A stretch of 11,961 nt of DNA from a candidate division WOR-3 bacterium (GCA_965649115.1 CBFGJN010000058.1:1-11961), one strand, 5' to 3'. Counted from the stretch's first letter, positions 1 through 11,961 are shown. Notes: generated by a model not told the origin, from the sequence alone. Made by a program: numbers and translations.

Positions 1-143
1 CCACCCTAATAATAAGCCTTCGGCTTATAAATGCCCATTTTTCGGTCTAGGGGGGCTTTGTCCCCCATAAAATTTTTAATTTCCTTAAAATTTTTGTAAG
101 TTATTGATAATCAAGGACTTAACACTATTTACTAGACAAAGCA
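1..143 (+). mobile_element. MITE-like element copy A (left end outside window)
   Basis: Hairpin ATAAGCC-TTC-GGCTTAT 12-28; GGGGGGC-TTT-GTCCCCC 50-66; double IHF-like site 97-121; right TIR TTACTAGACAAAGCA ending 143. Confidence 0.85.
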
Positions 144-159
144 ATTTAAAATTGTCGTG

Positions 160-341
160 TGCTGTGTCTAGTAATTTTGAAAAAAATATATATTTTATTA
201 TATTTTTCCCTCTCACCCTGAAAATAAGGCTTCGCCTTAAAAACTTTGCCCCTAAAATCTCCCCATTAAATCAATAGTTTCATTAAAGATTTTACAAGTC
301 ATTGATAATCAATTACTTAACATTATTTACTGGACAAAGCA
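160..341 (+). mobile_element. MITE-like element copy B (182 bp)
   Basis: Left TIR TGCTGTGTCTAGTAA at 160; right TIR TTACTGGACAAAGCA ending 341; hairpin TAAGGC-TTC-GCCTTA 225-239; IHF-like pair 295-319. Confidence 0.88.
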
Positions 342-350
342 ATGGTTTAT

Positions 351-512
351 TGGTGTGTATAGTAATTCTGAAAATAATTATTTTTCTTTATTTGCTCACC
401 TGCTCTAAAATCAAGCCTTCGTCTTATAAATACTCCATCTTTTGCTATGGGGGAATTTGTATCTAATAATTTTTCCCTCCATAAAATCCCCCCAATTTAC
501 TAGACCAAAGCA
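351..512 (+). mobile_element. MITE-like element copy C (short, degenerate, no IHF module)
   Basis: Left TIR variant TGGTGTGTATAGTAA 9 nt after copy B; right TIR TTACTAGACCAAAGCA; flanks ATGGTTTAT / ATTGTTTAA (7/9 identical). Confidence 0.8.
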
Positions 513-529
513 ATTGTTTAACAATTTAT

Positions 530-1321
530 CTAATCACTAACCAAAATAAAACCAATACCTAAATTTTTCAATTTGTTCTTTATTTTATTTGAAATCTCCT
601 TTCCAATTAAAATTGGTATAACCTTTCTCTTATAAACTTTCTGTAAAATTTCTCTCCTTCTCATAACTCTTTCAATATCATAATCTCCAATTTTATATGA
701 AATCTCAATAGCAACATATACTTCCTCTCTCGTGCTTTTTAACATACCACTAATAATTAAATCTAATTCACTAACATCCTCCTCCTCTTCTTCACTAATT
801 ACTTTTTCTTCAACATATTTGTCTAATTCATCAAATAATTCACTTTTTTCTTTTATCTTACATTTTCTAAGTCCAATATGCCTTCCTAAATATGAGCATA
901 TGTTTAAGAAAACTTTATGTTCTAATTGCCAACCTTTCAATTCTTGTATGCTCTTTTCATGGCTTTTTAGTATTTCTTCCATCCTATCTTGTCTCTGTTT
1001 TATCTCATCTTGCCCCTTCTCCAATAATTCAAATCTTTTATTTACTTCATTTTTGAATTCTTCAAACCTTCTATCTGCCTCTTCAAATCTTCTATTTACT
1101 TCACTTCTAAATTCCTCAAACCTTCTATCTGATTCATCAAATCTTTTATCTATTTCATCAAATCTTCTATTTACTTCACTTCTAAATTCTTCAAACTTAA
1201 TAGGTAATTCTAATAACTCTTTTGTTAAAATTAACATTCTCAACTTTTCAAGATAGTCTGGTCTTTCTCTTAATAAATTTAGCAAATCTTCAAATTCTTT
1301 TATAATGTATTCTTTTTCCAT
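530..1321 (-). CDS. Hypothetical protein: N-terminal repetitive coiled coil plus C-terminal PD-(D/E)XK nuclease-like domain
   Basis: 263 aa. FEEFRSEVNRRF / FDExDRR coiled-coil repeats; C-terminal ELDLIISG...VYVAIEISYKIGDYDIERVMRR pattern typical of this nuclease-like fold. Family assignment is by motif recognition only. Confidence 0.7.
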   Translation of the reverse strand: MEKEYIIKEFEDLLNLLRERPDYLEKLRMLILTKELLELPIKFEEFRSEVNRRFDEIDKRFDESDRRFEEFRSEVNRRFEEADRRFEEFKNEVNKRFELLEKGQDEIKQRQDRMEEILKSHEKSIQELKGWQLEHKVFLNICSYLGRHIGLRKCKIKEKSELFDELDKYVEEKVISEEEEEDVSELDLIISGMLKSTREEVYVAIEISYKIGDYDIERVMRRREILQKVYKRKVIPILIGKEISNKIKNKLKNLGIGFILVSD

Positions 1322-1330
1322 AGTTTTAAA

Positions 1331-1336
1331 AGTTTA
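1331..1336 (-). promoter_or_regulatory. Putative -10 box (TAAACT), 9 nt before ATG 1321, no SD
   Basis: Minus strand reads CCTT-TAAACT-TTTAAAACT-ATG; same context as at 7042, 8396 and 11265. Confidence 0.45.
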
Positions 1337-1344
1337 AAGGTTAA

Positions 1345-1486
1345 ATTATTTTTATTTGTTTCATTATGTTCTGCCCACCCGCCCTGAAAATAAAACCATC
1401 TTTTGCCTTGTGGAATCAAAAATTTTCTTAAAACTTCTATAAGTCTTTGATAATCAACAACTTAACAATAATTATTGGATAAAGCG
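1345..1486 (+). mobile_element. MITE-like element copy D (left end eroded, start approximate)
   Basis: GCCCACCCGCCCTGAAAATAA core; IHF-like pair 1440-1464; right TIR TTATTGGATAAAGCG ending 1486. Confidence 0.75.
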
Positions 1487-1495
1487 ATTTAAAAT

Positions 1496-1641
1496 TACTT
1501 TGTCCAATAATAAAGGCTACGCCTTTAAAATTCCCATATTTCGGCAAGGGGGCAATAAACCCCCCATAAAAACTATAATTTTCTTAAATTTTTGTAAGTT
1601 GTTGATAATCAATAATTTAACACTATTTATTGGACAAGGCA
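1496..1641 (+). mobile_element. MITE-like element copy E (internal deletion after left TIR)
   Basis: Left TIR TACTTTGTCCAATAA 9 nt after D; hairpin TAAAGGC-TAC-GCCTTTA 1511-1527; IHF-like pair 1595-1619; right TIR TTATTGGACAAGGCA. Confidence 0.82.
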
Positions 1642-1650
1642 ATTGGAAGC

Positions 1651-1765
1651 TTAAATCAGTAATTTCAGCAATTTTTCATAATTTGCCAACCCACTCTGAA
1701 ATTAAGTCTTTGACTTTAAAATACCCATTCATAAGCTTTGGGGAAATTTGCCCACATTAAACAAC
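1651..1765 (+). mobile_element. MITE-like element copy F (degenerate fragment, ends approximate)
   Basis: CAGTAATTTC, GCCAACCCACTCTGAA, hairpin AAGTC-TTT-GACTT 1704-1716, ATACCCAT and TGGGGAAATTTGCCCAC are colinear with the consensus. Confidence 0.65.
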
Positions 1766-1825
1766 CTTTAAAATTTAATAACTATTATATTTTTCCTTAC
1801 TTACTTTGAATTTAGGGCGGATAAT

Positions 1826-2647
1826 ATGGAAATAGAATATTCTGATAAGGGTTATATTTACAAGCTAAAAGGGAATGTTTTTTTGAAAACAGACAATTAT
1901 GAAATTTACTCAAATAAAGGGGTATATTATGAAGGTGATGGTATTTCAGAGCTTGAAGGTAATGTTTTAGTAAAAGGTAAAAATTACATTACAACATCTC
2001 ATTATTTAAAACATATTCAAAAAAATGATGAAATTTATTTAAAAGGAAATGTTTATCTTGAAGATAGTTTGAGAATTATAAAAGCAAATGAAATTCATGT
2101 AAAAAATAATTTTTCAAGGGCAAAAAATAATGTTCATATTTACTTAAAAGATAAAAAAATTATTTGTGAGGGAGATAGTGGGAATTACGATTTGAATAAA
2201 AAGGAAGGTGTTATTTTTAATGTGAAGTACATAAACATAATTAGGGATAGTGATACAGTTGACATTAGAACCAAAATTGTTTTTGTTTTTAAAGAAAATT
2301 TAAAACTCAAACCATTAATAAGCCTTAAAACGAGGAAAGAATTTGCAAAAGGTGATAGCTTAATATATGAAACATTAGAAGATTCAACTGAAAAAATTAC
2401 AATTTACAATAATGCTTTTATATCTTGGGAAAATGGTAATGGAAACTCTGATACAATTATTATTTATTATAAAAATTCAAGAATTGAAAATGCCCAATTT
2501 ATAAATAATGCTTATGTCCAAACAAAGAATAACGAAGATATAATATCAGTAAAATCAAATTTGGTAAATGTTGAATTTTCTGAAAGTAAAGTTAAAAAAG
2601 TTATTTGTTATGATTTAATTGAAGGGGTAAGTGAAAAATGGAAGTAA
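1826..2647 (+). CDS. LptA/OstA (LptD N-terminal-like) beta-jellyroll family protein; true start may be upstream
   Basis: Repeated L(K/E)GNV motifs (LKGNVFL, LEGNVLV, LKGNVYL) and GDS/SDT turns typical of OstA/LptA; overlaps the der start. Confidence 0.65.
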   Translation: MEIEYSDKGYIYKLKGNVFLKTDNYEIYSNKGVYYEGDGISELEGNVLVKGKNYITTSHYLKHIQKNDEIYLKGNVYLEDSLRIIKANEIHVKNNFSRAKNNVHIYLKDKKIICEGDSGNYDLNKKEGVIFNVKYINIIRDSDTVDIRTKIVFVFKENLKLKPLISLKTRKEFAKGDSLIYETLEDSTEKITIYNNAFISWENGNGNSDTIIIYYKNSRIENAQFINNAYVQTKNNEDIISVKSNLVNVEFSESKVKKVICYDLIEGVSEKWK

Positions 2648-3930
2648 AAAAAAGACTGCCAAGAATTGTAATTGTCGGAAGAGCAAATGTTGGAAAATCA
2701 ACATTATTTAATAAACTCATTGAGAAACCATTTTCTATTGTAAAAAACGAGCCAGCTATCACAAGAGATAGAATTACAAAAATTGGATATTGGCTTGATT
2801 GGAGTTTCTATTTAACAGATACAGGAGGATTATTAGACAAAAAAGAAATGGAAATTCTATATGATAAAGTTTTAGAAAGTATTAAAAAAGCTATTGAAAA
2901 AGCTGATGTTATCATATTTCTTACTGATGGAACTACTGAACCAATGCCTATGGATTATGAAATCGCTAATGTTTTAAGAAATTATAATAAAAAGGTTTTT
3001 TTAGCAGTTAATAAATGCGATAGAAGTGATTTTTCATATTTAGAGTACTATAAACTTGGATTTGATAAAGTTTATCCAATATCAGCAGAACATAAAATTG
3101 GATTAAATGAATTATTTGAGGATATCTTTGATTATCTTAAAATTGAAGGTTTTGAACCTATAAAAAGATACAAGAAATTAAAAGATAAACCAAGAGTAGG
3201 AATTATAGGCAAAGTAAATGTTGGAAAATCATCATTATTAAATGCTCTTGTTGGAGATGAAATTGCTATTGTATCTGATATTCCTGGAACAACAAGAGAT
3301 TCAATAGATGTTGAAACAAAAGAATTCATATTTGTTGATACTGCTGGACTTAAAAGAGAATTTAAAGATGATATTGAATATTATGCTTATGTTAGGACTT
3401 CAAGAAGTATTCATTATTCAGAAGTTTTATTAGCTGTATTAGATGCATCTCAAAAAATTACAAGAATGGATAAGAAAGTTGTAGGAATTGCTCAAAAGGA
3501 ATATAAAGCACTTATAGTTGTTTTAAATAAATGCGACTTAATAAAGAAAAAAGATAGAAAAAAAGTTTTTGATTATTTCAAAAAGGAACTTGAATTTGCT
3601 GATTGGGCTCCTTTTCTATTCGTTTCAGCCAAAACTGGCGAAAATTTAGATATTCTAAAACAAACGATAAAAGAAGTTTATAAACAATATAATAAACAAT
3701 TGAGAAAAGATGAATTGCTTGATACATTATCAGAAGCTTTTGAGTTAAATAAACCTCCCTCAAGAATTTATGAAATTAAACAAGTTGGACATAAACCTCC
3801 AACATTTAAATTTGTTCTTGATAAAGAATTCAAAAGCCATTATGTTAAATATATTGAAAGTGCTTTAAGAAAAAAATTCGGTTTTTATGGAAGTCCAATA
3901 AAAATTATAATGGAAAGAAAAAAACAATGA
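2638..3930 (+). CDS. der: Ribosome biogenesis GTPase Der (EngA)
   Basis: Two GTPase domains: GRANVGKS/TRD/DTGG/NKCD and GKVNVGKS/GTTRD/DTAG/NKCD; C-terminal LRKKFGFYGSPI. Confidence 0.96.
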   Translation: MEVKKRLPRIVIVGRANVGKSTLFNKLIEKPFSIVKNEPAITRDRITKIGYWLDWSFYLTDTGGLLDKKEMEILYDKVLESIKKAIEKADVIIFLTDGTTEPMPMDYEIANVLRNYNKKVFLAVNKCDRSDFSYLEYYKLGFDKVYPISAEHKIGLNELFEDIFDYLKIEGFEPIKRYKKLKDKPRVGIIGKVNVGKSSLLNALVGDEIAIVSDIPGTTRDSIDVETKEFIFVDTAGLKREFKDDIEYYAYVRTSRSIHYSEVLLAVLDASQKITRMDKKVVGIAQKEYKALIVVLNKCDLIKKKDRKKVFDYFKKELEFADWAPFLFVSAKTGENLDILKQTIKEVYKQYNKQLRKDELLDTLSEAFELNKPPSRIYEIKQVGHKPPTFKFVLDKEFKSHYVKYIESALRKKFGFYGSPIKIIMERKKQ

Positions 3931-4562
3931 ATGGATGGATATTTAAAGATGGATTTTATGTTTTTGAAGGAGAATTCTTTATAATCAAGGTTTCTACAAA
4001 ATTAATAGATGAAGAAACAATAACTTGTGATGTATGGTTAAATCAAATTCATTCGGATAAAATCTACATTATTGATGATATTAAAAATTTACCAAAAGGC
4101 AACTTAGATGGTGATGGAATAATTTTAAAATTGAAAAATGTAAAGTCAAGAATAAGAACTGCTGATTGTTATCCTACTATATTAATTGATAAAAAAAATC
4201 AAATTGGTGCCATTTTACATATTGGTTGGAGGGGTTCATATTTAAGGATTTTAGAAAAATGCATAAGAATTTTCCATGATTATTTTAATTCAAAAGATAT
4301 AATGGCAATTTTTGGTCCTGGTATTTGCTCAAAGTGTTATGAAGTAAAGGAAAATTTATTTAATTACTTTCCAAAAGAGTACTTTTATTTCAAAGATGAA
4401 AAAATTTTTTTTGATATTTTAACTTTCAATATAGATATTCTCAAAAGATTTGGCATTAATGAAATTATTTATCCACCATCTTGTTCTTTTGAAAACCCTA
4501 TTCTTTATTCACATAGAAGAAATGAAAAAAGTAGAATTTTTACAATTTTTGAGATGTTTTAG
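3927..4562 (+). CDS. PgeF/YfiH-family (polyphenol oxidase/laccase-domain) protein
   Basis: LNQIHS, TADC, HIGWRG, GPGICSKCYEV and YSHRR motifs; ATGA overlap with the der stop. Confidence 0.9.
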   Translation: MNGWIFKDGFYVFEGEFFIIKVSTKLIDEETITCDVWLNQIHSDKIYIIDDIKNLPKGNLDGDGIILKLKNVKSRIRTADCYPTILIDKKNQIGAILHIGWRGSYLRILEKCIRIFHDYFNSKDIMAIFGPGICSKCYEVKENLFNYFPKEYFYFKDEKIFFDILTFNIDILKRFGINEIIYPPSCSFENPILYSHRRNEKSRIFTIFEMF

Positions 4563-4572
4563 ATAAATCTCT

Positions 4573-4693
4573 TCCTTTGTCAGAATAGTTGCTTGATTTA
4601 ATGTGGGGATTTTATTGGGGGATTAAAAGCATAAAAATGGGCATTTATAAGCCAAAGGCTTATATTTAGGGTGGGTGGAAAAAAGACAAAGCA
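4573..4693 (-). mobile_element. MITE-like element copy G (short, inverted), between convergent genes
   Basis: Minus strand begins TGCTTTGTC...CCACCCACCCTAAATATAAGCC-TTT-GGCTTATAAATGCCCAT; degenerate far TIR TCCTTTGTCAGAATA at 4573. Confidence 0.8.
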
Positions 4694-4713
4694 ATAATTT
4701 TAAATTTTTTTTC

Positions 4714-5307
4714 TTATGGACTAAATGGTTGTCTTGATAAAATTGCTTTTTGTAAAGTGATACTATCAGCATAAATAATTTCATAACCTGTTGGAATACC
4801 TCTTGCTATTTGCGTTATATTTACTTTTAAGTCTTTTATTTTTTCATAAATATAATAGCTTGTTGCATCTCCTTCAACACTTGGACTCAAACCAATTATC
4901 ACTTCTGAAATATCCTCTTCCAAAATTCTACTTTTTAAATCATCAATAAATAAGTTATTTGGTTCAATTCCCTCAAGCGGAGAAATTAAACCTCCAATAA
5001 CATGATATTTCCCATTATAAACCCCAAGTCTTTCAATATGAAACATATCATATGGACTTTCAACAACCATAATAACTTTATCTCTTTGAATATCTGAACA
5101 TATATCACAAATTTCTTTCTCGGATATTGTATGACATTTTGAGCATAGTTTTAATTCTTTTACTTCATTCAAAGAATTCATTAAATCTTCTAGAATTTTT
5201 TTGTTTTTTACAATTGTAAAAGCACTTTTTTCAGCAGTTTTTTCACCAATACCTGGAAGTTTTTTTAAATTTTCAATAAGTTTTAAAAAAGACTTTGGAA
5301 ATTTCAT
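4714..5307 (-). CDS. recR: Recombination mediator RecR
   Basis: LPGIGEKTAEK HhH, CxxC...CxxC zinc finger, YHVIGGLISP, EGDAT, IARGIP. Confidence 0.97.
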   Translation of the reverse strand: MKFPKSFLKLIENLKKLPGIGEKTAEKSAFTIVKNKKILEDLMNSLNEVKELKLCSKCHTISEKEICDICSDIQRDKVIMVVESPYDMFHIERLGVYNGKYHVIGGLISPLEGIEPNNLFIDDLKSRILEEDISEVIIGLSPSVEGDATSYYIYEKIKDLKVNITQIARGIPTGYEIIYADSITLQKAILSRQPFSP

Positions 5308-5618
5308 ATACCAAGTTGTTTTCTAACTTCTGGTGGTAAATCTTTTAATAATTCCTGCATCTTTTGTAATGATTGTTGTTGAGCTTTCTTTTGAGCATTA
5401 TTTATTAAATTAACAATAGTTTTTTCAATTTTTTTAATATCTTGTGATTTAAATATATCCTCACTTAATTTTATATCAATTACCTCACCAGCACCATTTA
5501 CAATAACCTTTATTTTACCATCCATTCCACTCTCCTCTATCCTTATATTTTTAAGTTCCTTTTGCATTTTGTCTATTTTAGCCTTCGCTTCCATAATCTG
5601 CTTTAAGTTCCCAAACAT
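5304..5618 (-). CDS. ybaB: YbaB/EbfC nucleoid-associated protein (start revised from TTG 5624 to ATG 5618)
   Basis: KMQKEL...GKIKVIVNGAGEVIDIKL pattern; conserved adjacency to recR; AGGAGG lies 6 nt upstream of ATG 5618 but abuts TTG 5624. Confidence 0.9.
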   Translation of the reverse strand: MFGNLKQIMEAKAKIDKMQKELKNIRIEESGMDGKIKVIVNGAGEVIDIKLSEDIFKSQDIKKIEKTIVNLINNAQKKAQQQSLQKMQELLKDLPPEVRKQLGI

Positions 5619-5624
5619 TTTCAA

Positions 5625-5630
5625 CCTCCT
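5625..5630 (-). promoter_or_regulatory. Shine-Dalgarno AGGAGG for ybaB
   Basis: Minus strand AGGAGG-TTGAAA-ATG. Confidence 0.75.
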
Positions 5631-6705
5631 ATATTTTTATTATATCTTTTGTTATACTCGTTAAATTTACAACTTCATTTTTCTCCTTATCAAGATAAAC
5701 AGTGTCCTCTATTCTTATTCCAAATTCGCTTTCAATATAAACACCAGGTTCAATTGTAAAAACTTCATTTCCTTTTAATATCCATTCATCTGCTTTTTGA
5801 CTAAAAGCAGGTAATTCATGAACATCAATTCCAATAGAATGACCAAGTGCATGACCAAAATAATTATCATCATAACCAAAGGACTTTAAATAATCCCTTG
5901 CTATTGAATCAACCTCTTTATTTTTTATTCCAATTTTTGTTTTTTCTTCTACTAAATCTACTGCTTTTTTAACAATTTCATAAACTTTTAAAAATTCTTC
6001 ATTTATACTTGAACCTATCCAAATCGTTCTTGTAATATCACAACAATATCCATCATAAACTAAACCAAAATCTATTAGAAGTGGTTTATTATTTAAAATT
6101 TTTTGATTTGATGGTCTTCCATGTGGCATAGCACTTCTATGAGATGTTAAAACAATTGTTTCAAATGCCATTTTCTCAACATTATATTTCTTTTTTGCTA
6201 TATATTCCATCTCTATTGCTAAATCTCTTTCAGTCATTTTTTCAGGTTCTATAATGTTTAAAATTTCTTCAAAGATATTTTTAGCAATATCACAAGCCTT
6301 CTTAATTTTATTAATTTCTTCATAGCTCTTAATAGCTCTTAAATTCTCAATTATATTGTTAGTGGGAATAAATTCAATATCCCTAAATTTTTCTTTAAAA
6401 CTATTAAGTGTGCTTATTGTAAAATATTTTCCTTCAATAGCTAATTTTTTTATTGGTTTTAAAAGTTCTTCCATGGTTTTGAAATAATCATTATAAATAA
6501 TAATTTCATATTTGGTTTTGTCAATTTTTTCATTAGCGTAAATTTTATACCTAAAATCAGTAATAAAATAATTTTTCTCTTTGGTTATTAAAATTTGGGC
6601 AAATGAACCAGAAAAGCTTGAAAGGTACTTTATATTTGATAAATTTGTAATAAAAAGCCCATCTAAATTATTTTCAGTTAAATAATTACGAAGGTAAGAT
6701 AGCAT
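5629..6705 (-). CDS. Xaa-Pro aminopeptidase/dipeptidase, M24B family
   Basis: Creatinase-like N-terminal domain (TDFRY); metal-ligand motifs IDFG, CDITRT, HALGHSIGIDVHE, TIEPG, RIED. Confidence 0.94.
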   Translation of the reverse strand: MLSYLRNYLTENNLDGLFITNLSNIKYLSSFSGSFAQILITKEKNYFITDFRYKIYANEKIDKTKYEIIIYNDYFKTMEELLKPIKKLAIEGKYFTISTLNSFKEKFRDIEFIPTNNIIENLRAIKSYEEINKIKKACDIAKNIFEEILNIIEPEKMTERDLAIEMEYIAKKKYNVEKMAFETIVLTSHRSAMPHGRPSNQKILNNKPLLIDFGLVYDGYCCDITRTIWIGSSINEEFLKVYEIVKKAVDLVEEKTKIGIKNKEVDSIARDYLKSFGYDDNYFGHALGHSIGIDVHELPAFSQKADEWILKGNEVFTIEPGVYIESEFGIRIEDTVYLDKEKNEVVNLTSITKDIIKI

Positions 6706-7033
6706 TTATCTTCGGTAAAACAATTTCAGGCTTTAATCTTGGATCTTTTTTCCATTCTTCTCTCAAAATTTTTAAAACATTTAAACGAACTTCAATTGGA
6801 TAATTGCTAATAATTGGTTCAATATGTTTTTTCCACAATTCAACACCTCTTTTATATGCCCAACCTCTTATGTTCGTTGGATGTTTTATTAAGAATGTTT
6901 TAGCAATTTCAAGAGCTTTTTCAGTTTCACCTGCTAGCAGAAGTTCAGCAATTTTAGATTCTACTTTATAACTTTTCTTTTTTAACTTTAATTTTTGTTG
7001 TTTTTTAATTTGATACTGCTTCCATCTGCTCAT
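6686..7033 (-). CDS. Hypothetical basic protein
   Basis: 115 aa; ATG start with an upstream -10-like box; overlaps the peptidase start by 20 nt; no recognised family. Confidence 0.7.
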   Translation of the reverse strand: MSRWKQYQIKKQQKLKLKKKSYKVESKIAELLLAGETEKALEIAKTFLIKHPTNIRGWAYKRGVELWKKHIEPIISNYPIEVRLNVLKILREEWKKDPRLKPEIVLPKINAILPS

Positions 7034-7041
7034 ATCCGAAA

Positions 7042-7047
7042 ATTTTA
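7042..7047 (-). promoter_or_regulatory. Putative -10 box (TAAAAT), 8 nt before ATG 7033
   Basis: Minus strand CTT-TAAAAT-TTTCGGAT-ATG. Confidence 0.55.
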
Positions 7048-7069
7048 AAGCATAACTATTTAATCAAAT

Positions 7070-7273
7070 TGCTGTGTCTAGTAATTCTGAAATATAGATT
7101 ATTTCTATATTTTCCCACCCACCCTGAAAATAAGGCTTCGCCTTTAAAGTACCCATATTTCGGCTATGGGGGGCTTTGCCCCCCATTAAAACCCCCCTTT
7201 AATAAATAATTCCAATAAAATCTTTATAAGTTATTGATAATCAATAACCTAACACTATTTACTGGACAAAGCA
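7070..7273 (+). mobile_element. MITE-like element copy H (full length, 204 bp) with perfect 9-bp flanking direct repeats
   Basis: TIRs TGCTGTGTCTAGTAA / TTACTGGACAAAGCA; TAATCAAAT at 7061-7069 and 7274-7282; hairpins 7132-7144 and 7166-7186; IHF-like pair 7227-7251. Confidence 0.92.
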
Positions 7274-7282
7274 TAATCAAAT

Positions 7283-7426
7283 TGCTGTGTCCAGAAATTC
7301 TAAAAATATAATTATTTCTATATTTCCCTCACCTACCCTAAATTCAAGCCTTTTGCTTTAAAATGCCAATTTTTCGGCTGCGGGGGCTCCGTCCCCCTAT
7401 AATTCTCCCATTAATTGAACAAAGCA
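7283..7426 (+). mobile_element. MITE-like element copy I (short, 144 bp) with the same 9-bp repeats
   Basis: TIRs TGCTGTGTCCAGAAA / TAATTGAACAAAGCA; TAATCAAAT at 7274-7282 and 7427-7435; lacks the IHF module. Confidence 0.88.
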
Positions 7427-7481
7427 TAATCAAATTTTTCGGTGTTGGAAGCTTTAATTTCAGACCCACTCCCACCTGACT

Positions 7482-8168
7482 TTAAAAATTATAAATTTTT
7501 AATGCCAAATTTTTAAAAAATTCTATAACTTCATTTATTTCAATAGGTTTTATCATATTTAGAGGGATAAAATTTAATTTTTCTAAAATTTCAATTCTTT
7601 CCTCTATTTCAAATGCAACGCTTGGAGGGTCATCAAATAATTTTTCCTTCCTTCTTGAAAGTTCATAAATTTCATCAAAGTTAAAATTGAAGTTTTTAAA
7701 AATAAAATAAAAATCAATCAAATCTCTAATTTCAAATCTTGAAACAATAGCACAAAGTTTATTGCTTGCTATATTTTCAAGACAATCAACTTTTAGTGTT
7801 CTATCATTCTCAAATTTAAAAACCTTCCTTTCACAATCTATTGAAAGTCTATCTATTACAAAATCAACTTTTATACCAAGAATTTCATAAGATAAATAAA
7901 ATTCTGATATTGATTTTATGCTTACATTATAAGAAAATTTGAACTTTATCCAAAAACTTAAATCATTTAAATTAACATCTGAAATTGTAAAAAAATCTAA
8001 ATCTTCTGAAATTCTATGTCCTAAATAAAAAACTGAAAGAGCGGTTCCTCCAGTTAGAAAAAATTCATTTTTTATAGTTTCATTTTCAAGTAAACTTATT
8101 AACAAATTTCTTTGACTATCTGATTTGTAAGCACTTTTTATTTCTTTAACTGGATAATTCTTTTCCAT
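7482..8168 (-). CDS. AbiEii/AbiGii-family nucleotidyltransferase toxin (type IV TA-like)
   Basis: FFLTGGTAL...HRISEDLDFF signature; downstream NKL...R...RDLID motif. Confidence 0.9.
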   Translation of the reverse strand: MEKNYPVKEIKSAYKSDSQRNLLISLLENETIKNEFFLTGGTALSVFYLGHRISEDLDFFTISDVNLNDLSFWIKFKFSYNVSIKSISEFYLSYEILGIKVDFVIDRLSIDCERKVFKFENDRTLKVDCLENIASNKLCAIVSRFEIRDLIDFYFIFKNFNFNFDEIYELSRRKEKLFDDPPSVAFEIEERIEILEKLNFIPLNMIKPIEINEVIEFFKNLALKIYNF

Positions 8169-8389
8169 TTTTTTCTAGCCTTTGGAGATATTTTAACTTT
8201 ATCAATAAATTCTTCAATTTCAGAAATTGTAAAAATTTTTAAAGTATCAGCAACACTTGCCCTTTCAAGAAATCTTGATAAAATCCATAGATATACTTTT
8301 TCATTATTTCTATTATTATTCAAGAATTTAATTAAATTTTGCTCATCTTGAAAATCACTATAATCCCAAAATACATTTTTCAAATTCAT
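8138..8389 (-). CDS. Small putative antitoxin partner of the AbiEii gene (DUF6922-like)
   Basis: 83 aa; FWDY...ILSRFLER pattern; directly upstream of the toxin ORF and overlapping it by 31 nt. Confidence 0.7.
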   Translation of the reverse strand: MNLKNVFWDYSDFQDEQNLIKFLNNNRNNEKVYLWILSRFLERASVADTLKIFTISEIEEFIDKVKISPKARKKWKRIIQLKK

Positions 8390-8395
8390 ATTAAA

Positions 8396-8401
8396 ATTTT
8401 A
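8396..8401 (-). promoter_or_regulatory. Putative -10 box (TAAAAT), 6 nt before ATG 8389
   Basis: Minus strand CCTT-TAAAAT-TTTAAT-ATG; no SD. Confidence 0.55.
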
Positions 8402-8423
8402 AAGGATAAAAATTGATTTGTTG

Positions 8424-8627
8424 TGCTGTGTCTAAGAATTCTGAAATTATTTATTTTTCTTATTTTGCCCACCCGCCCTGAAATAAAGGCTTCGCCTTTA
8501 AAATGCCCATTTTTAGGCTTTGGGGGGCTTTGCCCCCCATTAGATCCCCCATAAAATCAATAGTTTTATTGAAATTTTCGTAAGTCATTGATAATCAAGC
8601 ATTTAGCAATAATTACTGGACAAAGCA
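8424..8627 (+). mobile_element. MITE-like element copy J (full length, 204 bp)
   Basis: TIRs TGCTGTGTCTAAGAA / TTACTGGACAAAGCA; hairpins 8484-8500 and 8521-8539; IHF-like pair 8581-8605. Confidence 0.92.
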
Positions 8628-8636
8628 GATAAAAAT

Positions 8637-8750
8637 TGCTTTGTCTAGTAATTCTGAAATAATTTATTTTTCTATGTTTTGCCCAACCGCCCTATGAATA
8701 AGCCTTCGGCTTATAAATACCCATATTTGTGCCTTGGGGGGCTTTGCCCT
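8637..8750 (+). mobile_element. MITE-like element copy K (right part missing, abuts alaS stop)
   Basis: Left TIR TGCTTTGTCTAGTAA 9 nt after J; hairpin ATAAGCC-TTC-GGCTTAT 8698-8714; ends within GGGGGGCTTTGCCC. Confidence 0.85.
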
Positions 8751-8753
8751 AAT

Positions 8754-11255
8754 TTAAATAAATAACTTTTTTATTTTATCTTCTAAGTTTTCTAAAATTT
8801 CTAAATTATCCGTTCCTCCTTCTGCTTTAATGTCAGAGCCACCTCCCTTCCCCAAAATTTTTATCATTAGATTATTAGCATTAAATTTATCTTTTAGAAG
8901 TTTCCCAATTCTAAAATGTGCTATAACTTTATCTTCTAATTTTGAAAAAAGAAAAATAAGTAAATCATCTTTTTGTAGGTAATCTGCCAATTTTCTTAAA
9001 AATTCCATATCAGCACCCTTTAAAACTTCAAAATAATATCTATATCCATTAGTTTCTTTTGAACTTATCGTTTTTGAATAAATGCTAATGTACCTATCAA
9101 GTAATTCATTATACTTAACCTGCATATTTTTATTTTCAAGAATAGTCTTTTCTAATTTTTCAGGAATGTCTTTAATATCTGATTTTAATAAAACTGATAC
9201 CTTTTTGAGAATTTCCTCGTTTTCTTTAATGTATTCAAAAGCTCTAATACCAACATAAGCATTTATTCTTCTAATTCCACTACTAACAGCCTCTTCCTTT
9301 ATAATTTTAAAAAATCCAATTTCCCCTGTTCTCCTAACATGTGTTCCTCCACATAATTCTTTACTAAAATCTCCAATACTAACAACCCTAACAATATCTC
9401 CATATTTTTCTTCAAAAATAGCAATTGCTCCTTCATTTATAGCACTTAAATAGTTTTTATATTCCCAAATAACTTCCAAATTTTCTCTAATTTTTTCATT
9501 AACAAGTTTTTCTATTTCATTAATTTCCTTATCACTTAAAGGTTTTGGATGTGAAAAGTCAAATCTCAATCTGTCATTCTCAACTAAGGAACCTTGTTGA
9601 AGTGCATGTTCTCCAATAATTCTATGTAATGAAGAATGTAATAAATGTGTTGCTGTGTGAGCTCTCATATTTGCTTTTCTTAAATTTACATCAACTTTTG
9701 CCAAAACTTCTAAATTATTTAACTTTATATTGTTTTTCAATTTTCCAAATAAAACAATATCTGAGCCTATTTTTTTAGTATCAAAAATTTCAATTTCATC
9801 ATTTTCTAAAACTAAAATTCCCTTATCTCCAACTTGACCCCCACCTTCGGGATAAAAAGGAGTTTCAAATAAAACAATGTAAATTTTATCATTTTCAATT
9901 TTATATTTAGCAATTTTTGTTTTATATTCCATAAAATCATAGCCTACAAATTTCGTTGATTTATAGTTACCGTCAATATAATCCCAATTTTCAATGAGCA
10001 TTATATTCCTTTTCTCCTTAGTCAGTCTTTTCCTTTCATCTAATAATCTATCATAACCTTCCAAATCAAGTTTTAAATTTTTATCTTTTGCATATTCTTC
10101 AATTAAATCCAAAGGTATTCCATAAGTATCGTAAAGCTTAAATATATCTTCACCTTTTATTATATCATTTGAATTTTGGACAATTTCAATTAGATAAACG
10201 ATGTTCTTTCCAATTGTTTGAATGTACTTTTCTTCTTCGTTTTTGATAATTTCTTTAATTGTTTTTAAGTTTTTTGAAATTTCAGGATAAGCATTTTTCA
10301 TAATTTCATAAACTACATCAACAAGTTTATATAAAATTGGTTCATTAACATTTAATTTCTGAGCAAATTTATAAGCCCTTCTTAAAATTCTTCTTAAAAC
10401 ATAACCTCTTGAATAATTACTTGGATAAATTCCATCAGAAATTGCAAATACTAATGCTCTAATATGATCTGCTATAACCCTATGGGGAACTCCCGTTTTT
10501 TCATCATATTTAACACCTGTTAAATTTTCTATTTCTTTAATAATTGGCATAAACAATGAAGTATGATAATTATTATTAACACCTTCAATAACTGATAATA
10601 ATCTTTCTAACCCCATTCCTGTATCTACATTCTTTTTTGGAAGTGGTTCTAAACTTCCATCACTCTTTCTATTGAATTCCATAAAAACGATATTCCACAA
10701 TTCAAGCATTTCATCACCTAAATCATAATGAATCTCTGTTGAAGGTCCACAAGGACCAACATCACCCATTTCCCAAAAATTATCTTTTTCATCAAATTTA
10801 AAAATTCTTTTTTCATCAATTCCAACTTCATCTTTCCAAATATAATATGCTTCATCATCTTTATAATAAACACTAACATATAACTTTTCTTTTGGAATTT
10901 TAAAAACATTTGTTAATAATTCCCAAGCCCATAAAATTGCCTCCCTTTTAAAATAATCTCCAAATGAGAAATTACCAAGCATTTCAAAGAATGTATGATG
11001 TCTTCTTGTAAATCCAACATTATCTAAGTCATTATGTTTTCCTCCCGCTCTTAAGCATTTTTGACAAGTAGTTATTCTTTTTGATGGTGGTTCTGCTTCA
11101 CCTAAAAAATATATTTTAAATTGATTCATACCTGCATTTGTAAAAAGAAGTGTATTATCTCCTCTTGGAAGTAATGAACTTGAAGGATAAATTAGATGAC
11201 CTTTTTCTTTAAAAAATTCCAAAAATGTTCTTCTTAATTCATCAGCTTTTTTCAT
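8754..11255 (-). CDS. alaS: Alanine--tRNA ligase
   Basis: LLFTNAGMNQFK, HHTFFEMLGNFSFGDYFK, DTGMGLER, TPFYPEGGGQVGD, editing motifs HTATH and ELCGGTH, C-terminal GKGGG. Confidence 0.99.
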   Translation of the reverse strand: MKKADELRRTFLEFFKEKGHLIYPSSSLLPRGDNTLLFTNAGMNQFKIYFLGEAEPPSKRITTCQKCLRAGGKHNDLDNVGFTRRHHTFFEMLGNFSFGDYFKREAILWAWELLTNVFKIPKEKLYVSVYYKDDEAYYIWKDEVGIDEKRIFKFDEKDNFWEMGDVGPCGPSTEIHYDLGDEMLELWNIVFMEFNRKSDGSLEPLPKKNVDTGMGLERLLSVIEGVNNNYHTSLFMPIIKEIENLTGVKYDEKTGVPHRVIADHIRALVFAISDGIYPSNYSRGYVLRRILRRAYKFAQKLNVNEPILYKLVDVVYEIMKNAYPEISKNLKTIKEIIKNEEEKYIQTIGKNIVYLIEIVQNSNDIIKGEDIFKLYDTYGIPLDLIEEYAKDKNLKLDLEGYDRLLDERKRLTKEKRNIMLIENWDYIDGNYKSTKFVGYDFMEYKTKIAKYKIENDKIYIVLFETPFYPEGGGQVGDKGILVLENDEIEIFDTKKIGSDIVLFGKLKNNIKLNNLEVLAKVDVNLRKANMRAHTATHLLHSSLHRIIGEHALQQGSLVENDRLRFDFSHPKPLSDKEINEIEKLVNEKIRENLEVIWEYKNYLSAINEGAIAIFEEKYGDIVRVVSIGDFSKELCGGTHVRRTGEIGFFKIIKEEAVSSGIRRINAYVGIRAFEYIKENEEILKKVSVLLKSDIKDIPEKLEKTILENKNMQVKYNELLDRYISIYSKTISSKETNGYRYYFEVLKGADMEFLRKLADYLQKDDLLIFLFSKLEDKVIAHFRIGKLLKDKFNANNLMIKILGKGGGSDIKAEGGTDNLEILENLEDKIKKLFI

Positions 11256-11264
11256 AGTTTGAAA

Positions 11265-11270
11265 ATTTTA
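11265..11270 (-). promoter_or_regulatory. Putative -10 box (TAAAAT), 9 nt before alaS ATG
   Basis: Minus strand TTT-TAAAAT-TTTCAAACT-ATG; no SD. Confidence 0.55.
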
Positions 11271-11292
11271 AAATATAAATTTAAATTTACTA

Positions 11293-11438
11293 TGCTGTGT
11301 TTAGTAATTCTGAAAGTCCTTATTTTATTATAATTTCTCCACCCACCCTGAATATAAGCCTTTGGCTTATAAATACCCATTTTTCGGCTGTGGAGGACTT
11401 CGCCCCCCATAAGTCACCCATTATTTTTGGACAAAGCA
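11293..11438 (+). mobile_element. MITE-like element copy L (short, 146 bp)
   Basis: TIRs TGCTGTGTTTAGTAA / TTTTTGGACAAAGCA; hairpin TATAAGCC-TTT-GGCTTATA 11353-11371; no IHF module. Confidence 0.87.
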
Positions 11439-11440
11439 AA

Positions 11441-11510
11441 GTTTTATTATATTTTTCCCACCTACTCTAAATACAAGTCTTCGGCTTAAAAACTTCATCC
11501 CCCATCAAAC
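11441..11510 (+). mobile_element. MITE-like element fragment M (no TIRs, ends approximate)
   Basis: TTTTATTATATTTTTCCCACCTACTCTAAA and AAGTC-TTC-GGCTT 11475-11487 are colinear with the consensus. Confidence 0.7.
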
Positions 11511-11542: not shown

Positions 11543-11961
11543 TCAGTGTAAAATTATCCTTGAAAGGAAGTATAACAAGATGCTTGAAATAATAGTTATT
11601 GAAAGTCCTAAAATCATTCTTTCAATTCTTTCAGTTCTCTTTTCAAGCCTGTTAATATCGTCCTTTGTGGCAAAATTCTTTTGCGCTTCTTTTAGTTCTC
11701 TAATGTCATCTTTTGTAGCAAAGTTTTCTTGACTTGCTTCAATTTTCTCAATCCTCTCTTCAAGTCTCTTAATATCATCCTTTGTGGCAAAATTCTTTTG
11801 CGCTTCTTTTAGTTCTCTAATGTCATCTTTTGTGGCAAAGTTTTCTTGACTTGCTTCAATTTTCTCAATCCTCTCTTCAAGTCTCTTAATATCATCCTTT
11901 GTGGCAAAATTCTTTTGCGCTTCTTTTAGTTCTCTAATGTCATCTTTTGTGGCAAAGTTTT
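11543..11961 (-). CDS. Partial (5' end outside window) membrane-anchored coiled-coil protein with ATKDD repeats, DUF1640/CCDC90-like architecture
   Basis: Manual translation: ...(NFATKDDIRELKEAQK-NFATKDDIKRLEERIEKIEASQE)x2-NFATKDDIRELKEAQK-NFATKDDINRLEKRTERIERMILGLSITIISSILLYFLSRIILH*, with TGA at 11545-11543. Not in the ORF track. Confidence 0.85.
   Translation of the reverse strand, partial: NFATKDDIRELKEAQKNFATKDDIKRLEERIEKIEASQENFATKDDIRELKEAQKNFATKDDIKRLEERIEKIEASQENFATKDDIRELKEAQKNFATKDDINRLEKRTERIERMILGLSITIISSILLYFLSRIILH
11652..11961. repeat. 117-bp coding tandem repeat (~2.6 units visible), made of 48+69 bp subunits
   Basis: TTAATATC(A/G)TCCTTTGTGGC recurs at 11652, 11769 and 11886; units are near-identical. 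Confidence 0.93.

Follow-up and report, generated by a model that had tools for sequence, protein, structure and literature searches.

Compensatory base-pair changes in an internal hairpin of a miniature transposable element from a candidate division WOR-3 bacterium

Are the arms of a short hairpin inside an abundant bacterial repeat held complementary to one another, and, if so, by what? The question is raised by an 11,961-nt stretch of DNA from a candidate division WOR-3 bacterium (GCA_965649115.1, CBFGJN010000058.1:1-11961), referred to here in its whole length as the window. Its intergenic gaps are packed with copies of one repeat, a MITE (miniature inverted-repeat transposable element), that is about 205 nt long and has inverted ends. 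This stretch corresponds to contig C58 of G000, an assembly of 1.85 Mb (27.6% G+C, 99 contigs, 94.5% complete), and its DNA was found in 12 sequencing runs, mostly hot-spring metagenomes, all of them of DNA or of a type not stated. An earlier interpretation made without knowledge of the origin of the DNA (the sequence-only reading) had singled out one hairpin of the repeat, hairpin 1, and had argued that its structure is being maintained and that it has a role beyond passive MITE filler. The first part of this claim is upheld by covariation and by compensated double changes in the stem; the second, a role beyond the filler as which MITE interiors are usually treated, is a matter of interpretation. 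We conclude that the complementarity of the stem is upheld by some force that acts on the lineages of elements that spread, and not on resident copies.

A pattern scan located hairpin 1 at 12 places in the window, and the sequences of all 12 copies agree with those given by the sequence-only reading. Copies B, E, H and J carry the G-C form of the stem (AAGGC-TTC/TAC-GCCTT), and copies A, G, K and L carry the C-G form (AAGCC-TTC/TTT-GGCTT). The hairpin is mismatched in copies C and I, a point that had not been stressed, and GCGAAGC is indeed present on the reverse strand of copies B, H and J. We refer to the strand of the MITE profile as the model strand and to its opposite as the gene-sense strand; because the model strand lies opposite to the genes in most copies, what had earlier been called the opposite strand is the gene-sense strand. 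Six copies of the window, combined in a profile, gave 621 matches on 92 of the 99 contigs of G000, and a full-length profile gave 737 matches that total 99,456 nt, or 5.4% of the genome.

Covariation in the stem of hairpin 1

The dimorphic pair is the second from the loop and corresponds to model columns 72 and 78. Among 571 copies, it is C-G in 356 and G-C in 150, with C.C in 13 and G.G in 7. The mutual information between the two columns is 0.62 bits, which ranks third of all column pairs, while the next best partner of either column reaches 0.10 bits. The normalised value, 0.547, far exceeds what is typical of polymorphic columns at a spacing of 4-6 nt (median 0.058). Only six of the 3,081 pairs score higher, which places it 7th, and those six are confined to two block substitutions. 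A pair-count test used 39 copies, taken from the window and from G002, a congener that is about 87% identical to G000 in syntenic blocks. Paired cells made up 86.1% in these copies and 77.2% in shuffled data, and the covariation score was 0.210 as opposed to 0.080; neither observed value was reached in any of 500 shuffles, and controls in which the stem was slid along the alignment scored at most 0.034.

Additional evidence came from a maximum-likelihood tree with 398 branches, built from 200 near-full-length copies, on which 14,706 column pairs were compared. Columns 72 and 78 change 35 and 38 times, respectively, and they change on the same branch 33 times, with 31 of these joint changes replacing a Watson-Crick pair by a different one (p 1.6e-40, rank 1 of 14,706). 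Of the 35 changes in column 72, only 1-11 are accompanied by a change in a column 4 nt away, compared to 33 for column 78. For each of the pairs 69/81 and 71/79, 3 of the 5-6 changes are joint ones, all of them Watson-Crick (p 1.9e-5 and 3.8e-5), values that are significant for pre-specified pairs and would fail a correction for all 14,706 pairs. Pair 73/77 shows 2 co-changes (p 0.012). Covariation therefore stays significant after phylogenetic correction for the dimorphic pair and, as pre-specified pairs, for 69/81 and 71/79. The sequence-only reading had also described swaps of the outer pairs, and these were not confirmed: 68/82 and 67/83 are Watson-Crick in only 330/560 and 297/522 copies, and neither pair co-changes on the tree (p 0.73 and 0.16). 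A second hairpin, hairpin 2, has a stem of seven G-C pairs and lies close to the centre of the element (window 7168-7184; model columns 105-121). Despite its longer arms, no co-change was seen on the tree in any of its 7 pairs.

The sequence classes of the stem were counted in 556 complete hairpins. The exact C-G or G-C form accounts for 359 of them, and a further 107 have one stem difference, namely a wobble on the model strand (34), a wobble on the other strand (26) or another mismatch (47). Two differences at paired positions that restore Watson-Crick pairing are found in 34 hairpins, other double differences in 29, and three or more differences in 27. Under independence, only 1.1 compensated doubles would be expected, an excess of about 30-fold, compared to 29 observed and 12.2 expected for the other doubles. 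The compensated stems are AAAGC..GCTTT (16), AAGCT..AGCTT (9), GAGCC..GGCTC (7) and two singletons, and these 5 types are spread over 15 flank clusters. Consensus folding (120/137 full-length copies) recovered hairpin 1 alone on the model strand; on the other strand, it gave only unconvincing long-range pairing.

The stem and loop of hairpin 1 can be compared with a class of DNA mini-hairpins. Passages of PMC13037366 state that this motif is formed by GNA triloops only, that GC-GC and CC-GG stems give mini-hairpins while CG-CG and GG-CC stems do not, and that the melting temperature is 76.5 °C for d(GCGAAGC), 65 °C for CCGAAAGG and 39 °C for r(GCGAAAGC). The natural variation of hairpin 1 fits this stem rule: of 572 copies, 468 close the loop with C-G and none with G-C, no copy of 565 has C-G as its third pair, and both orientations are found at the second pair alone. 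The gene-sense cores, CCGAAGG for the C-G allele and GCGAAGC for the G-C allele, are both known DNA mini-hairpin cores. Inside MITEs, the gene-sense strand holds 188 instances of GCGNAGC and 234 of CCGNAGG, and none of the control motifs in which the closing pair is wrong; outside MITEs, the mini-hairpin motifs are not clearly enriched (74 and 97, vs about 63 expected from base composition). The sequence-only reading had noted GNA loops closed by C-G on this strand, and 455 C-G-closed hairpins include 316 with GAA and 34 with GTA; the AAA loop of another 51 is not GNA. The likeness to the d(GCGNAGC)/d(CCGNAGG) mini-hairpins of Hirao and colleagues thus extends to the exact cores, the C-G closing pair and the loops, which are mostly GAA and GTA. 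The natural mini-hairpins named in passages of PMC13037366 are those of the phage G4 origin, of RSF1010 ssiA, which is bound by the RepB' primase, and of the phage N4 early promoters. Hairpin 1 differs from these in that it lies in a transposon, that many of its copies have decayed to AAA loops and that its folding is predicted.

Nearest-neighbour energies of hairpin 1 at 37 °C are -3.2 to -5.0 kcal/mol as DNA, a calculation that may omit the extra stability of mini-hairpins, and -4.3 to -7.2 kcal/mol as RNA; those of hairpin 2 are -10.4 (DNA) and -17.3 (RNA) kcal/mol. The gene-sense strand also shows a quadruplex-like pattern in 248/380 copies, with three close G-triplets and a fourth 18-36 nt upstream, and hairpin 1 sits in the long loop of this four-tract pattern of G-runs (model columns 51-61 and 89-91; e.g. 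window 7116-7160). A quadruplex-hairpin hybrid may be conceivable in this 27.6% G+C genome.

Mobility of the family and history of the dimorphism

The duplications, copy number, empty site and species-specific copies of the repeat show that it is a mobile element. The terminal inverted repeats consist of TGCTKTGTCYAGTAAT at the 5' end and an inverted match at the 3' end, and end-like sites number 914 in the genome, divided almost evenly between the strands (462 and 452). Both ends were aligned in 212 matches, of which 202 were testable for target duplications; perfect 9-bp duplications flank 91 of these, compared to 0.72 expected by shuffling, and at least 8 of the 9 positions match in 107. 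Given terminal inverted repeats and 9-bp duplications, the repeat is a true MITE. Only 12 of 737 MITE midpoints lie within long open reading frames (ORFs). The full-length copy H shows the layout of the element, with a 5' inverted end followed by a C-rich block, hairpin 1, hairpin 2, an AT-rich palindrome and a 3' inverted end. The palindrome, in the 3' third (window 7225-7250; model columns 167-187), is near-perfect and 23 nt long, and its core bears a possible resemblance to the operators of iron regulators of the Fur type.

Copy H is bordered by the 9-mer TAATCAAAT at 7061-7069 and 7274-7282, and a third TAATCAAAT lies at 7427-7435, directly after copy I, which is stacked on H. This arrangement is what insertion of the later copy into the target duplication of the earlier one would leave. 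Copy G is absent from a related strain, in which a 5,348-nt contig from a hot-spring population (run X7, record 28) joins window position 4558 directly to 4714; the empty site at 4559-4713 indicates that copy G is a presence/absence polymorphism of an insertion. This was the only usable site in a comparison of the contigs of 4 runs with the window, which yielded mostly repeat noise. Across 34 syntenic gaps, copies are present in G000 only in 18, in G002 only in 4, in both in 7 and in neither in 5, and the family occurs in G002 at lower density than in G000. No match to the MITE was found in the congeners G001 and G004 nor in 34 genomes outside the family, and the profile search gave a match of only about 25 nt in two sister-genus genomes. 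G000 and G002 share 15 5' junctions in register, 13 of which have enough aligned columns. In none of these 13 cases do the two elements resemble each other more than randomly chosen family members do (identity 0.71-0.84; rank 34-395 of 352-543); each pair represents either separate insertions at one site or orthologues that have diverged to the family background. In one syntenic pair from the two genomes that was aligned by eye, the hairpin has decayed.

The placement of the insertions is not random with respect to genes. In co-directional gaps, the model strand is opposite to the genes in 259/281 copies. Among 451 copies with an aligned 5' end, the motif TTTAAAA starts 19-20 nt beyond that end in 151, and 99 more abut another copy. 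In the 118 copies with the motif at its modal offset, an ATG mostly follows 7-12 nt after the motif. Insertions of the MITE lie in a single orientation and at a set distance from this start-proximal motif, and the orientation bias is therefore explained by target choice and not by an RNA function.

An explanation of the dimorphism by two ancestral subfamilies, a prospect considered in the sequence-only reading, does not apply in the simple sense. The tree requires 32 changes between the C-G and G-C states, compared to 51 with shuffled labels, and no further column is linked to the state (best mutual information 0.10 bits vs 0.62 for the partner column). Nearest neighbours agree in state 72% of the time, compared to 57% by chance. 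Among copies that are less than 6% diverged in their distal parts, pairs that are discordant in state differ by about 19% in their near flanks (27 columns around the hairpin), which equals the family average, compared to 2-6% in the same columns for concordant pairs. The hairpin thus moves with a patch of flank, and the family is a recombination mosaic. The swap between C-G and G-C behaves as one old polymorphism reshuffled by recombination, and not as many independent compensations. In G002, 95 complete hairpins include 69 of the C-G and 17 of the G-C form, and the variant with a broken closing pair is also present. Since both alleles are common to G000 and G002, the dimorphism is old, and it may trace to a single event.

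Once inserted, individual copies appear to go their own way. The G/C columns of the stem are non-consensus in 9.0% of cells, compared to 5-9% for most other G/C blocks and 16.6% for the 5' inverted end, and copies with a broken stem are more diverged elsewhere than the others (0.185 vs 0.155, p 6e-7). These data show that inserted copies decay without visible constraint on the stem. An internal hairpin thus keeps its pairing across a pool of elements older than the species split while inserted copies decay, a contrast that suggests that selection, or templated repair, operates at the level of the element and not of the host.

Explanations for the kept pairing

Selection on the element for a DNA-level hairpin is the likeliest cause of the kept pairing, a preference that we hold only tentatively. 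Under such selection, hairpin 1 would be an inherited structural module of the MITE, with a stem that is kept complementary in those lineages of the element that go on spreading. The C-G/G-C dimorphism is handed between copies, together with its flanks, by recombination, and at least three further Watson-Crick exchanges have reached multi-copy frequency. The constraint would act on the element itself and at the level of DNA; the symmetry of the wobbles between strands (34 vs 26) suggests DNA rather than RNA, as do the hot-spring metagenome origin, the weak RNA stem and the lack of a terminator or Rfam match. The gene-sense alleles, GC-GAA-GC and CC-GAA-GG, would form heat-stable mini-hairpins, and a hairpin or cruciform arm of this kind could help a very short hot-spring element to bend, to pair its ends or to be processed in transposition. 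Template switching may supply the matched changes as a mutational source. A bolder proposal, which we consider rather unlikely, is that of a thermophile transposon with heat-stable DNA mini-hairpins, in hairpin 1 and at the apex of hairpin 2, as working parts. It accords with the fact that the sole freely swapping stem position is the one left free by the mini-hairpin rule. The mini-hairpins could act as a hinge that lets the ends of the 205-bp element meet, or as a single-strand signal in replication-linked steps of transposition. If true, this would be a natural use of a very stable motif inside a transposon, and DNA secondary structure would aid the transposition of so short an element at high temperature.

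Several observations weigh against selection for a DNA hairpin. The main dimorphism may be a single event, as discussed above, and because the G-C core is the same as the hairpin-2 apex, it could have been copied in one step without selection. The form AAGCC-TTC-CGCTT, with a C.C closing pair, makes up 11 of 442 clean rows and is found in a further 8 copies in G002, and the broken form AAGCG-GAC-GGCTT occurs 6 times in the same rows; lineages with a broken closing pair have thus multiplied, so that hairpin 1 is not strictly required. The G of the gene-sense loop is unprotected, with TTT (AAA on the other strand) replacing TTC in 51/455 hairpins. On the partner strand, the TTC loop is not a mini-hairpin, and extrusion of a cruciform would be costly. 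We estimate that about one triloop hairpin in 16 would, by chance alone, combine C-G closing with GNA on one strand or the other. Finally, Pfam searches of G000 and 4 congeners found no transposase for the MITE.

The arms could also be rematched by mutation, with no function at all, through template switching in the quasi-palindrome or through ectopic copying from the hairpin-2 apex. We judge this to be somewhat unlikely, yet the template-switch alternative, already raised in the sequence-only reading, remains live. Passages of the relevant papers report that template switching creates and repairs hairpin stems and gives multi-base compensatory changes (PMC8794818), inverts spacers (PMC8604942) and acts in E. 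coli quasipalindromes (PMC7202029), and hairpin 1 is like the quasipalindromes of these studies in being an imperfect inverted repeat with arms matched by multi-base changes. The nine-base core of the G-C form, GGCTTCGCC, is identical to the hairpin-2 apex of the same element. Loops of GGA (13) and AGA (8), which are common in hairpin 2, occur in hairpin 1 with the G-C form only, and the nine most frequent loops of the C-G form include neither. Hairpin 2 has its loops in both orientations (TTC 44/GAA 31, TTT 26/AAA 17, GGA 13/TCC 11), as template-switch quasipalindromes do, and the lack of visible constraint on resident copies is likewise in keeping with a mutational process. However, among C-G-closed hairpins, the main loops of hairpin 1 are never inverted (TTC 316/GAA 0, TAC 34/GTA 0; for the others, TTT 51/AAA 1 and GGA 11/TCC 4). 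The closing pair never flips (0/572), and the stem sequence is kept, which homogenisation of the arms alone does not predict; uninverted loops and a conserved closing pair set hairpin 1 apart from the template-switch quasipalindromes. Moreover, hairpin 2 lacks co-changes in spite of its longer arms, and the loop of hairpin 1 does not track the hairpin-2 loop of the same copy, with the caveat that cases are few. If template switching alone explains the pairing, the roughly 700 copies would form a large natural data set for that mutational process.

A history of two ancestral subfamilies with hitch-hiking would need only one old chance double change, with no maintenance of pairing. While the occurrence of both alleles in two species, the replaced flanks that accompany state switches and the sharing of state by nearest neighbours (72% vs 57%) are consistent with this history, other columns are unlinked to the state (0.10 vs 0.62 bits), columns 4 nt away are randomised while 72 and 78 stay coupled, and 32 state changes are needed on the tree. 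There are also three further compensated variants, and compensated doubles about 30-fold above expectation. Hitch-hiking in its pure two-subfamily form is largely refuted, and we regard it as highly improbable. The lowest probability is given to the proposal that the palindrome does not fold as a hairpin but is the duplex binding site of a dimeric protein, such as the transposase or a factor of the host. The stem is conserved and symmetric and has a fixed place in the element, whose interior holds other conserved blocks, all of which would suit a binding site. Independent recognition of two half-sites would, however, lead to no complementary matching between them, contrary to what is observed, and mismatched combinations are rare (20/571).

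A role in RNA would have a parallel in bcr1 of the Bacillus cereus group, which, according to passages of PMC3184786, is a transcribed, MITE-like repeat of about 155 bp with 5-bp direct repeats and with compensatory changes that are read at the RNA level. Like bcr1, the MITE is a small non-coding mobile repeat with short flanking repeats and internal stems that show compensatory changes. Unlike bcr1, it has 9-bp duplications, a fixed distance to a motif and a triloop stem of 5-7 bp of the DNA mini-hairpin type, and it is known from DNA alone. In this scenario, read-through transcripts would fold hairpins 2 and 1, which would end, insulate or stabilise the RNA of the upstream gene, and insertions next to a downstream start would become tolerable. 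Because co-directional copies face one way (259/281), read-through RNA would always carry the strand with the GAA loop, and a short T-rich stretch follows hairpin 1 on the gene-sense strand. The orientation bias is already explained, however, by the fixed 19-20 nt distance to the motif (151/451 ends, with 99 stacked). None of the 5 terminator-like sites that the window holds, counting both strands, coincides with hairpin 1 or hairpin 2, and the sole match in Rfam 15 up to E = 1 is ALIL, which at 17.4 bits (gathering score 50; E 0.65) is not credible. As RNA, the stem has a folding energy of just -4.3 to -7.2 kcal/mol (37 °C), a mini-hairpin made of RNA has a melting temperature of 39 °C according to the same passages of PMC13037366, and G.U-type wobbles are not commoner on one strand (34 vs 26). 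We therefore consider a role in RNA to be unlikely, and more doubtful than mutational rematching. Compensatory changes in MITE-like repeats are already in print for bcr1, in the passages of PMC3184786 referred to above; what would be new here is the mini-hairpin twist in a MITE, which is unproven. A search at title level of the literature on compensatory hairpins in MITEs and on the phylum found no publication on this family.

Copies in the window, search for a transposase and neighbouring genes

The copies of the MITE in the window are listed in the table.

Table. Positions of hairpin 1 and of MITE copies in the window
Feature	Position	Strand	Description
Hairpin 1, copy A	14..26	+	AAGCC-TTC-GGCTT, C-G form; element 1-143, cut by contig start
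Hairpin 1, copy B	226..238	+	AAGGC-TTC-GCCTT, G-C form; element ~160-341
Hairpin 1, copy C	413..425	+	AAGCC-TTC-GTCTT, C.T mismatch at dimorphic pair; element ~351-512
Copy D, degenerate	~1353-1486		thirteenth hairpin-1 copy, near 1386; directly upstream of E
Hairpin 1, copy E	1513..1525	+	AAGGC-TAC-GCCTT; element ~1497-1641, internal deletion
Hairpin 1, copy F	1704..1716	+	AAGTC-TTT-GACTT, T-A at dimorphic pair
Hairpin 1, copy G	4649..4661	-	AAGCC-TTT-GGCTT, C-G form; element ~4570-4700
Copy H, full-length MITE	7070..7273	+	hairpin 1 at 7132-7144, G-C form; hairpin 2 at ~7168-7184
Copy I, short MITE stacked on H	7283..7426	+	hairpin 1 at 7346-7358, AAGCC-TTT-TGCTT, closing pair broken
Copy J, full-length MITE	8423..8627	+	hairpin 1 at 8486-8498, G-C form, GCGAAGC on opposite strand
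Copy K, 3'-truncated MITE	8637..8752	+	hairpin 1 at 8700-8712, C-G form, CCGAAGG on opposite strand
Copy L, short MITE	11293..11438	+	hairpin 1 at 11356-11368, AAGCC-TTT-GGCTT
Hairpin 1, copy M	11475..11487	+	AAGTC-TTC-GGCTT, T.G wobble; 5'-truncated element

To judge from its layout, a 205-bp unit with inverted ends and 9-bp duplications probably points to a DDE-type transposase as the mover. Target duplications of 9 bp and short terminal inverted repeats are features of the IS903 group of the IS5 family, and the MITE is like this group in both, a likeness that rests on these features and not on the sequence of the ends. Unlike the IS903 group, it has no matching transposase gene in G000 or 4 congeners: PF01609, PF13737 and PF13586 gave 0 matches in G000, and PF01609 gave 0 matches in G000 and its 4 congeners, all of these searches having been made in fragmented assemblies. 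No end-bounded unit with a transposase ORF was found in G000 among inverted-end pairs 260-4000 bp, and then 800-1800 bp, apart. Such pairs had been candidates for the parent insertion sequence, and they proved to be merely housekeeping genes bracketed by MITE ends. Multi-copy ORF families, considered as possible transposases, turned out to be a family of about 147 aa and proteins with DUF3782 and PDDEXK_10, and PF01609 matches in the sister genus (G005 and G006) were without MITE-like ends, save for one doubtful site with 2 mismatches. The sequence-only reading had proposed a search for HUH nucleases of the RAYT/TnpA type; the Y1 HUH family PF01797 gave 0 matches in G000, while the control matched 6/14 reference genomes. 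The MITE is like REP (repetitive extragenic palindromic) sequences and bacterial interspersed mosaic elements (BIMEs) in that both are very abundant intergenic hairpins with a strong orientation bias. It is unlike these elements and their RAYT (Y1 HUH) partners in that no Y1 transposase was found in G000 and the hairpin is enclosed in a 205-bp unit that has inverted ends.

The ORF of about 147 aa is present in six copies (C22:10920-11363, C13:7316-7756, C50:3289-3729, C61:5313-5786, C71:3393-3824 and C7:48763-49095). All six start directly after the start-proximal motif, and their last codons, together with the DNA past the stop, look like the palindrome module of the MITE.

Two single host genes are bracketed by inverted MITE ends, namely that of an S-adenosylmethionine (SAM)-type methyltransferase (C23:582-1460) and a coiled-coil gene (window 351-1486), and host genes bracketed in this way might in principle move as composite units. 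The coiled-coil gene belongs to a multi-copy family that is represented in the window at 530-1321 (-) and 11543-11959 (-), and that has paralogues elsewhere in G000 at C4:53074-54033, C26:460-1272, C28:16758-17462 and C32:7758-8411. In a scan that covered the paralogues on C4, C28 and C32, and not the window's own copies, all three matched DUF3782, and two also matched a PD-(D/E)XK nuclease domain (PDDEXK_10). The coiled-coil copy at the end of the window holds three tandem repeats of 117 nt.

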